A stretch of DNA of 27,388 nucleotides from an uncultured Candidatus Saccharibacteria bacterium (GTDB lineage Bacteria; Patescibacteriota; Minisyncoccia; Phycocordibacterales; CAIZIN01), in contig CAZTQI010000001.1 in the NCBI GenBank assembly GCA_964615805.1, positions 1 to 27,388 of the forward strand, written 5' to 3'. This document shows, one piece after another, positions 14,112 through 14,647 of this stretch (the stretch's first letter is position 1; each line of letters begins with the position of its first letter). A program made the position numbers and the translations under genes. Below the pieces are notes generated by a model. That model was not told the DNA's origin and searched no databases. It saw nothing but the letters and a program-made list of their open reading frames with translations.

Positions 14112-14146
14112 AAAATAAAAAGAGCTCAGATTATTAATCTAAGCTC
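14112..14146 (-). terminator. Terminator after the leftward 37-aa peptide
   Basis: Minus strand GAGCTTAGATT-AAT-AATCTGAGCTC then TTTTTATTTT. Confidence 0.75.
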
Positions 14147-14185
14147 AGATGTTGTTTGATGCCTCTTTCTTCTGACATCACAGGG

Positions 14186-14299
14186 TTATGGGGAAGATTC
14201 ACTTCCATAGTCGTCTGACGTCGGTATATCACCTTCGGCTCCGTCGTCACCATCACCTCCGCCACCACCATCATTTTTGTAACAATACGATGTTTTCAT
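14186..14299 (-). CDS. Small Gly/acidic peptide 1, 37 aa: MKTSYCYKNDGGGGGDGDDGAEGDIPTSDDYGSESSP (absent from ORF track)
   Basis: Hand translation. GC-richer coding-like patch inside AT-rich DNA, with its own promoter and terminator and a same-length sister peptide on the other strand. Confidence 0.75.
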   Translation of the reverse strand: MKTSYCYKNDGGGGGDGDDGAEGDIPTSDDYGSESSP

Positions 14300-14344
14300 T
14301 TGTTTAGTATTTACAGAATGAGACAACCTCATTCATCTAAATCA

Positions 14345-14408
14345 ATAGTAGCACTTTAAATACTAATGTCAAACAAATACTTGACAAAAAATTGCGTCGC
14401 TGTATTAT
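14345..14408. promoter_or_regulatory. Back-to-back divergent promoters for the two peptides
   Basis: Minus strand TTGACA (14367-14372)-16 nt-TACTAT (14345-14350). Plus strand TTGACA (14381-14386)-16 nt-TATTAT (14403-14408). Confidence 0.65.
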
Positions 14409-14490
14409 GAATTTAGATTAGTACTGTAATCTACATATAACACTGTGTACAGGCTATTCGAGCACAAAAACAAACAACAAAACTAAACAT

Positions 14491-14604
14491 ATGTTAAATT
14501 TACTGTTCAACATTCAATATGGTGGTGGCGGTGACAGCGAAGACGAAGGAGGTCACCCAGAAAGTGAAATCGAAGCTGAGGATGATGCTACCGGATCACG
14601 TTAG
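14491..14604 (+). CDS. Small Gly/acidic peptide 2, 37 aa: MLNLLFNIQYGGGGDSEDEGGHPESEIEAEDDATGSR (absent from ORF track)
   Basis: Hand translation. A/C-rich leader (ACAAAAACAAACAACAAAACTAAACAT) before the ATG, and a terminator 8 nt after the stop. Confidence 0.75.
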   Translation: MLNLLFNIQYGGGGDSEDEGGHPESEIEAEDDATGSR

Positions 14605-14612
14605 AACAACTA

Positions 14613-14647
14613 CACCCTAATTCTTATATGGATTAGGGTGATTTTTT
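14613..14647 (+). terminator. Terminator after the rightward 37-aa peptide
   Basis: CACCCTAAT...ATTAGGGTG 9-bp arms followed by ATTTTTT. Confidence 0.8.

Follow-up and report, generated by a model that had tools for sequence, protein, structure and literature searches.

A sparse family of Gly/Asp-rich acidic peptides tied to M16B peptidases in Patescibacteria and a possible RiPP-type cassette

The stretch of DNA analyzed here (the window; 27,388 nucleotides) is the complete contig C1 of a “Candidatus Saccharibacteria” assembly (GCA_964615805.1; 688 kb, 37% GC, 75% complete). The relatives of its source organism are ultra-small bacteria of the Patescibacteria/Minisyncoccota type, and DNA near-identical to the window is present in many lake and freshwater metagenomes. 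The window carries two divergent open reading frames (ORFs), pepA and pepB, each encoding 37 residues. Sequence comparisons indicate that pepA and pepB are real small-protein genes and that they belong to a sparse, previously undescribed family of 24- to 53-residue peptides with Gly/Asp-rich acidic tails in Patescibacteria/candidate phyla radiation (CPR) bacteria. They further indicate a functional tie of this family to an M16B zinc peptidase and to one swappable tailoring enzyme. We give a probability of about one-half to the reading that these genes form a cassette of the type producing ribosomally synthesized and posttranslationally modified peptides (RiPPs), in which the M16 peptidase would process the peptide and a GNAT acetyltransferase would tailor it. 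This reading is suggested because the peptide genes recur together with genes for a metalloprotease and a single exchangeable tailoring enzyme, and at some loci also with exporter or membrane protein genes.

A divergent pair of acidic peptide genes

The two genes and their predicted control elements are listed below, with coordinates of the window.

14186-14299, minus strand: pepA, a 37-aa peptide gene; 10-residue head, five Gly, Asp, and an acidic tail; net charge -7 (ORF list, composition)
14491-14604, plus strand: pepB, a 37-aa peptide gene; 10-residue head with Tyr at its end, four Gly, Asp, and an acidic tail; net charge -9; no Lys or Cys (ORF list, composition)
14345-14372, minus strand: pepA promoter, TTGACA-16 nt-TACTAT with an extended TG (promoter scan, 10 of 12 consensus matches)
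14381-14408, plus strand: pepB promoter, TTGACA-16 nt-TATTAT (promoter scan, 11 of 12 consensus matches)
14122-14146, minus strand: pepA intrinsic terminator, an 11-bp stem followed by a T run, between pepA and the M16 gene (promoter/hairpin scan)
14613-14640, plus strand: pepB intrinsic terminator, inverted repeat I8 (hairpin scan and repeat analysis)

A sequence-only reading of this DNA had described two divergent ORFs with 10-residue N termini, 4 to 5 Gly, Asp, and acidic tails, each with its own TTGACA promoter and terminator. The ORF list and composition agree with the first part of this description, and the promoter and hairpin scans recovered the second. The two -35 boxes are inverted copies of each other with 8 nt between them (14373 to 14380), and terminator-like hairpins 3' of the two genes were observed twice, compared with 0.6 ± 0.9 times in shuffled sequences. 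Both tails are rich in Asp, Glu, Ser, and Gly, with SESSP and ATGSR at the C termini of the pair. The pattern exceeds chance, because among the 25 runs of at least four Gly in the six frames of the whole 688-kb assembly, pepA and pepB, spaced 192 nt apart, are the only short ORFs with an acidic tail.

The two units fit a picture of old, diverged inverted duplicates: their Gly runs use the same codons (GGT GGT GGC GGx), both start codons lie within ACTAAACA(A/T)ATG, and a portion of the promoter region is common to both. Translation of pepA from a second ATG, located in frame farther upstream (14332), would yield 48 aa; the start context of the 37-aa form matches that of pepB and thus favors the shorter form, and metagenome gene callers annotated pepA as a 37-aa gene in two contigs. 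A 46-aa ORF at 14134 to 14274 (minus strand), which overlaps pepA in another frame and is annotated as a gene in metagenome records, is probably a spurious gene call.

Shine-Dalgarno sites are absent from most window genes, including pepA and pepB, and a TATAAT-like box lies just 6 to 12 nt 5' of the ATG at many window gene starts (e.g., 1840, 3007, 9220, and 12059). Taken together, these two features suggest that leaderless or near-leaderless translation is widespread in this genome.

Related peptides in other ultra-small bacteria

About 11 related small ORFs were found outside the window, in other ultra-small bacteria. Homologues of the window M16 gene and their contigs yielded ORFs directly beside M16 at loci L042/L043, L050, L022, L052, and L041. 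Genome searches among relatives added peptides beside M16 in G028, G398, G131, G353, and G243 and beside a GNAT gene in G013; all of these except G028 came from a composition scan of M16 and GNAT loci and had been missed by the family profile.

The family comprises two main types. Type 1 (pepA, pepB, L042, L050, G028, G398, G131, and G013) has a variable head of 5 to 17 residues that usually ends near Tyr or Phe, followed by a run of four to six Gly, an Asp residue (Ser-Ser-Asp in the G398 variant), and a polyacidic tail, with a net charge of -5 to -15. Type 2 is represented by L022 and L052, together with a short remnant in L041. This type has a conserved leader, with SVTGIQRP at its end, and then a putative core that contains Cys and ends in CPAPGDGDxDGGGS. 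The G353 peptide has the tail of the G028 peptide without the Gly run, while the G243 peptide is a 29-residue Cys/Gly/Asp sequence. Between the latter gene and the GNAT gene of G243 lie two tandem paralogous ORFs of 79 to 84 aa (L069 9326-9580 and 9577-9816, minus strand). The window peptides themselves have recognizable counterparts: the pepA tail DDYGSESSP is similar to the G013 tail DDYGEESGP, and pepB is similar to the L050 peptide in its Tyr, Gly run, Asp, and more distal HP[E/D].

Comparison at the codon level gives strong evidence that these ORFs are genes. The G028 and G353 homologues, which come from different families, differ at seven synonymous and no nonsynonymous positions over the 13-codon motif SCGDSSHDSSGPD; L022 and L052 show 11 synonymous differences and 1 nonsynonymous difference over the 14-codon motif of the type 2 core; and L042 and L050 show 6 and 5, respectively, over 22 codons. 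Since the conserved tail motifs change almost solely synonymously, the tails are shown, as judged by codon comparison, to evolve under protein-level purifying selection. AGGAG-type Shine-Dalgarno sites are located 5 to 10 nt 5' of the start in 9 of the 11 nonwindow homologues (L022 has a weaker AAAGG), and hairpins follow most of the 11.

It could be argued that pepA and pepB are chance ORFs or noncoding, with small RNA genes or a GGT/GAT-rich inverted repeat giving rise to the Gly/Asp frames incidentally. The two genes do lack Shine-Dalgarno sites, no RNA contig covers them, and no Rfam or protein family matches them. However, most window genes lack such sites as well, homologues at other GC contents have strong ribosome-binding sites and differ mostly at synonymous positions, so that the amino acid pattern is preserved, and the pair represents the sole two such ORFs in the genome, each with its own promoter and terminator. 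This explanation is largely refuted by the codon-level comparisons, and we regard it as very improbable.

In its own genome, pepB is the top match to the family profile (E values of 9e-13 and 7e-15). When the profile was run, at the thresholds used, against 401 species genomes at the order level and 401 at the phylum level, G028 was the only match besides the window's own genome; the profile misses divergent members of this low-complexity family and therefore underreports, so that such “not found” counts are weak. A protein search with the 48-aa form of pepA returned only itself, an NCBIfam scan of five peptides at E values of up to 1 gave no family, Rfam and tRNA scans of the window gave no match, and the family profile gave only insignificant low-complexity matches to PDB chains. 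The peptides thus have no match in Pfam, NCBIfam, Rfam, or PDB, and a full-text literature search found no paper on such peptides. The peptide family is undescribed in the family databases and papers searched; RiPP-like cassettes as a kind are already known.

Association with M16B peptidases and GNAT or radical SAM genes

The two enzyme genes associated with pepA and pepB in the window are as follows.

12809-14083, minus strand: M16B-type zinc peptidase, 424 aa; proposed processing protease (Pfam PF00675, Peptidase_M16, and PF05193, M16_C; motifs; homologue clade; recurrent adjacency)
12150-12713, minus strand: GNAT acetyltransferase, 187 aa, Acetyltransf_3, SpeG-like; proposed tailoring or immunity enzyme (Pfam, NCBIfam, and structure-relative search)

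The catalytic motifs of the window M16 are intact, with HFCEH at residues 54 to 58 and ExxxxxxE, as ERGAILAE, at residues 129 to 136, and the protein has the characters of the M16B type. An M16B peptidase gene adjoins 10 of the 11 nonwindow peptides, the exception being G013. The proposal that pepA and pepB are genuine small-peptide genes tied to the neighboring M16 and GNAT genes is thereby upheld: related small ORFs, which had been suggested as a check on it, adjoin M16 homologues at at least 10 other loci, and a GNAT gene is present at every Gly-run locus.

In a phylogenetic tree, the M16 genes at peptide loci form two related clades, A and B (L015 and L016, included as outgroups, are not M16 genes and should be disregarded). 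Clade A contains the window M16 and those of L022, L041, L042/L043, L050, and L052. Its members are 55 to 66% identical to the window M16 and were found in metagenome contigs only, with none among 350 class-level species representatives or 400 order-level species genomes. Clade B contains the M16 genes of G028, G398, G131, G353, and G243, is about 30% identical to the window M16, and occurred in 11 of the 400 searched genomes from the window's order. A single-protein M16 search of metagenome and genome contigs returned just distant M16 genes (20 to 31% identity) from Bacteroidota and others. No comparable peptide ORF stood out in 18 loci of housekeeping M16 genes or elsewhere in the window's own genome.

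Every type 1 locus has a GNAT gene 36 to 53% identical to that of the window (truncated, at 140 aa, in G398), as does G243; none was found near the G353 peptide. At peptide-free loci, a GNAT homologue is next to M16 in 0 of 10 cases (L023, L024, L025, L040, L051, L053, G173, G327, G044, and G074). A GNAT-first search identified one further peptide, in G013, where the peptide and GNAT genes flank a gene for an HExxH protein and no M16 gene was seen.

L085 7986-8663 (G013), plus strand: 225-aa protein containing HELIH, with weak metallopeptidase matches (M78/DUF6782), between the GNAT and peptide genes

This protein may be a replacement protease. The contig ends 217 bp past the peptide gene, and an M16 gene might lie beyond its end. 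Six other genomes with GNAT matches (31 to 39% identity) had no peptide within 1.5 kb.

At both intact type 2 loci, L022 and L052, a radical SAM gene lies just upstream and replaces the GNAT gene, giving the order radical SAM, peptide with conserved leader, and M16. L022 additionally has an ABC exporter gene, and L052 has instead a homologue of a window membrane protein. The sample of about a dozen loci was partly located by searching near M16 and GNAT genes, so that the association carries an ascertainment bias, which the GNAT-first search and the scan of the window's own genome lessen only partly.

A 433-aa PurD-like ATP-grasp gene adjoins the clade A M16 at five loci, divergently in four of the five and with or without a peptide gene, and a 205-aa ORF of no assigned function lies beside it in four of the five. 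Genomes of this kind usually lack purine synthesis.

L023 2604-3905; L041 2392-3693; L042 4649-5950; L050 2085-3386; L051 692-1993: PurD-like ATP-grasp (GARS_A)

A repeat-bounded unit that varies among strains

The GNAT, M16, pepA, and pepB genes make up a 2.6-kb unit between 36-nt direct repeats (35 of 36 positions identical), and these repeats sit between two paralogous membrane protein genes.

12105-12140: left 36-nt direct repeat, forming a terminator-like hairpin on the minus strand after the GNAT gene (repeat analysis)
14681-14716: right 36-nt direct repeat, just after the 190-aa membrane protein gene, likewise a terminator-like hairpin on the minus strand (repeat analysis)
14727-15299, minus strand: 190-aa multipass membrane protein flanking the cassette; no Pfam or NCBIfam family
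11496-12059, minus strand: 187-aa paralogue on the other flank, 55% identical to the product of 14727-15299

Contigs of another freshwater (lake) metagenome, run X4, diverge from the window at 12141, 14681, and 14349. At 14681 the match begins, with a different sequence before it; at 12141 the contigs diverge from the window; and 14349 falls between the promoters of pepA and pepB. This comparison shows strain-level variation at both 36-nt repeats and between the peptide promoters. Because the X4 contigs turn to unrelated sequence at the breakpoints, some strains may lack pepB or carry something else in its place.

Variation is also seen among the homologues. The clade A M16 genes of L050, L023, and L051 are near-identical, and L050 has a GNAT and a peptide gene inserted between M16 and the divergent PurD-like ATP-grasp gene, whereas L023 and L051 do not. 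In G131, a GNAT like that of the window (51% identity) is combined with a clade B M16 (28% identity). Clade A M16 is absent from the searched genomes of the window's own genus or family, and for this reason the repeat-bounded unit was probably acquired horizontally.

Mobility of this kind would suit a toxin-antidote-like module, in which a harmful GNAT is checked by a labile acidic peptide that M16 degrades, or a module in which the GNAT confers self-immunity against the processed peptide. Known GNATs include toxins as well as immunity enzymes (e.g., MccE for microcin C), GNAT and peptide genes move as a pair, and the unit is strain variable and repeat bounded. However, there is no two-gene operon: the window genes have their own promoters and terminators, and gene order and strand vary between loci. 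In addition, no DNA-binding antitoxin domain is present, and the GNAT resembles SpeG and not the TacT/AtaT-type toxins. Given these gene arrangements, a toxin or immunity role is less likely, and we consider it quite doubtful.

The flanking 190-aa membrane protein could be an exporter or an immunity protein. Homologues with about 30 to 33% identity are encoded beside the GNAT gene in G028 and downstream of M16 in L052, and its Atlas neighbors are hypothetical Minisyncoccota proteins. Outside the repeat-bounded unit, a 263-aa ORF (15537 to 16328, plus strand) without a Pfam or NCBIfam match looks like a RimK-type ATP-grasp, judging from its Atlas features (0.96) and its structure (TM score, 0.83). 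RimK-type enzymes append Glu tails to acidic C termini, and the sequence-only reading had proposed that this enzyme could cross-link or extend Asp/Glu residues of the peptides. That proposal found no support, and we rejected the gene as a peptide partner, given its position outside the unit and the lack of any homologue at the other peptide or M16 loci examined.

Proposed processing of the peptides and alternatives

In the proposed pathway, the peptide would be made in the cytoplasm, and the M16 clamshell would take in the disordered chain and cut it near the junction of the short aromatic-ended head and the Gly run. The GNAT would then acylate the free amine, presumably the alpha-amine because it is the only amine conserved across members, several of which lack Lys. 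Finally, the polyanionic Gly/Asp product would exit via the associated membrane protein or the ABC exporter. We infer the cleavage site, the acetylation, and the product alike. The earlier suggestion of secreted or surface peptides is unlikely if export were to proceed by way of Sec, and Sec secretion was rejected, as no hydrophobic signal-like segment is visible by eye in either peptide.

As in RiPP systems, a short candidate precursor gene lies beside processing and tailoring enzyme genes, and this linkage is kept at 10 other loci with a GNAT or radical SAM gene. A RiPP-like reading is reasonable in light of the sister type, in which a radical SAM gene and, at one locus, an ABC exporter gene accompany the peptide gene. 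By analogy with type 2, whose Gly/Asp-rich C-terminal segment is the most conserved part and occupies the usual core position, we favor the arrangement proposed earlier: the product would be the acidic tail, and the short head would serve as a minimal leader.

In the opposite polarity, the core would be the head (5 to 17 residues, often M-K/R ... Y/F), with the Gly run acting as a hinge and the acidic tail as a follower or recognition peptide removed by M16; the outcome would be a short, possibly signaling, peptide capped by the GNAT at the head alpha-amine. The heads vary extremely, even from one paralogue to the other, whereas tail motifs persist across families, and it is usually the recognition sequence that is conserved in RiPPs. 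Moreover, bottromycin-type precursors have an N-terminal core and an acidic follower, and in the several members without Lys only the alpha-amine is open to the GNAT. However, the tails differ greatly in length and sequence between loci, and the radical SAM type has an N-terminal conserved leader and its strongest conservation in the C-terminal Gly/Asp-rich part, which points to the tail as the core. We therefore regard the head as an improbable core.

Several points weigh against a RiPP-type cassette. Gly-run members lack a long conserved leader, a recognizable RiPP recognition element partner, and a class-defining cyclase, and their sole tailoring enzyme is an acyltransferase whose nearest solved relatives are spermidine N-acetyltransferases and not peptide acetyltransferases. 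The family is very rare; an exhaustive profile search of 1.84 billion representative proteins returned the query members only. Ten of about 21 examined clade A or B M16 loci have no adjacent peptide, and since so many of these M16 genes stand without one, M16 may have a general role and its neighborhood may be an insertion hot spot. Two metatranscriptome runs gave no contig over pepA or pepB, at a coverage too thin for a conclusion, and single-read contigs over the GNAT, M16, and membrane protein genes. A cofold of M16 with pepA had a score of 0.01 and is evidence neither way. The isoelectric points of the M16 proteins gave no sign of a basic shift such as would suggest a chamber suited to acidic substrates.

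The affinities of the GNAT make a different role of the peptides a serious rival to the RiPP-type cassette. The peptides might stay unmodified and serve as free polyanions, buffering or binding polyamines or Ca2+/Mg2+ or regulating the enzymes, with the GNAT as a true SpeG-like polyamine acetyltransferase and M16 serving peptide turnover. The GNAT has the Acetyltransf_3 fold and aligns over its full length to several SpeG structures, including those of solved spermidine N1-acetyltransferases (E values of 1e-13 to 1e-8, the best being 1e-13), and SpeG is both its nearest solved relative and its best NCBIfam match. Polyamine pathway genes recur near clade A M16 genes, namely, arginase family genes in L040 and L053 and an AdoMetDC (S-adenosylmethionine decarboxylase)/spermidine synthase fusion gene in L052 (3326-4408), and DxDG and DxDxDG-like strings are frequent in the tails. 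However, the SpeG score of 57.7 bits is far below the NCBIfam cutoff of 218, so that by the NCBIfam rule the protein is not a SpeG member, and the gene travels with the small-peptide gene, not with polyamine genes. Asp/Gly-rich low-complexity sequence gives such motifs by chance, and a polyamine role leaves unexplained why a radical SAM gene replaces the GNAT gene in the sister type. On balance, such a role of the free peptides is unlikely, though it deserves serious consideration.

Relation to known systems

PqqF/PqqL for pyrroloquinoline quinone and AlbE/AlbF for subtilosin are M16 peptidases in RiPP pathways. M16 zinc peptidases also act in the biosynthesis of class III lanthipeptides, as PttP1/PttP2 (PMC10885120). 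The loci described here resemble such pathways in having a small ribosomal peptide gene beside an M16 gene with an intact HxxEH motif and tailoring enzyme genes alongside, and one sister locus consists of radical SAM, peptide, M16, and ABC exporter genes. In contrast to those pathways, the Gly-run type lacks a lanthipeptide synthetase, a PqqE-type partner, and an enzyme that forms thioethers, there is one M16 gene instead of a heteromeric pair, and the peptides are Gly/Asp low-complexity sequences with a head of 5 to 17 residues. The window M16 is also distant from PqqF (19.7 bits, compared with a model cutoff of 320).

Microviridin gene clusters contain the ATP-grasp genes mdnB/C, the GNAT gene mdnD, and the ABC gene mdnE, and the GNAT caps the N terminus after leader removal. 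With microviridins and other graspetides, the family shares acidic residues in the putative core, a GNAT, several precursors per locus, and occurrence in CPR bacteria (PMC8939145). The survey of graspetides in CPR bacteria covers ATP-grasp loci and nowhere mentions M16 (PMC8939145). However, the cassette contains no graspetide-type ATP-grasp that could serve as a dedicated macrocyclase for the precursor, the nearby ATP-grasp being RimK-like and without co-occurrence, and the peptides have no long conserved leader.

Follower peptides are discussed in PMC10885120. As in bottromycin precursors, a long acidic C-terminal part follows a very short N-terminal one, and a metalloprotease gene lies nearby; the loci differ in lacking YcaO, a radical SAM methyltransferase, and an M17 aminopeptidase, and bottromycin precursors have neither a Gly run nor Gly/Asp low complexity. 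Double-glycine-leader bacteriocins, whose leaders of 15 to 30 residues end in GG and are cut by a C39-peptidase ABC transporter, are also a poor match, since the head has 10 residues, no C39 domain was found in Pfam scans of the window, and the ABC genes are of the ABC-2 type.

The N terminus of Pup has a Gly run followed by Asp residues. Like Pup, the peptides are predicted to be small, disordered, and acidic, with a short N-terminal stretch before a GGGGG-D-rich segment. However, they are about half as long as Pup and end in SESSP and ATGSR and not in GGQ or GGE, and no genes for PafA, Dop, or the proteasome were found in Pfam scans of the window, which sets them apart from Pup/UBact modifiers.

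Implications

CPR bacteria live attached to other microbes, and to our knowledge very little is known of the molecules they use on their hosts. Our analysis defines a peptide family of about a dozen members with two architectures, protein-level selection, and a repeatable partnership with M16 and a GNAT or radical SAM enzyme. If the peptides are processed, they would widen RiPP sequence space to near-pure Gly/Asp cores with minimal leaders and would exemplify modular evolution, with a cassette docking at a resident protease. Tentatively, they may even represent a new ribosomal peptide class, in which plug-in cassettes of a peptide and a GNAT or radical SAM enzyme dock at a resident M16 and yield exported, N-capped, oligo-Gly-headed Gly/Asp polyanions that possibly bind Ca2+ or other cations and act on hosts or competitors. 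In that case, few processed ribosomal peptides would be known with a leader as short, and the core would consist almost wholly of Gly, Asp, Glu, and Ser. If, on the other hand, the peptides act simply as polyanions, they would add a new kind of small protein to those linked to cation or polyamine handling in minimal cells.

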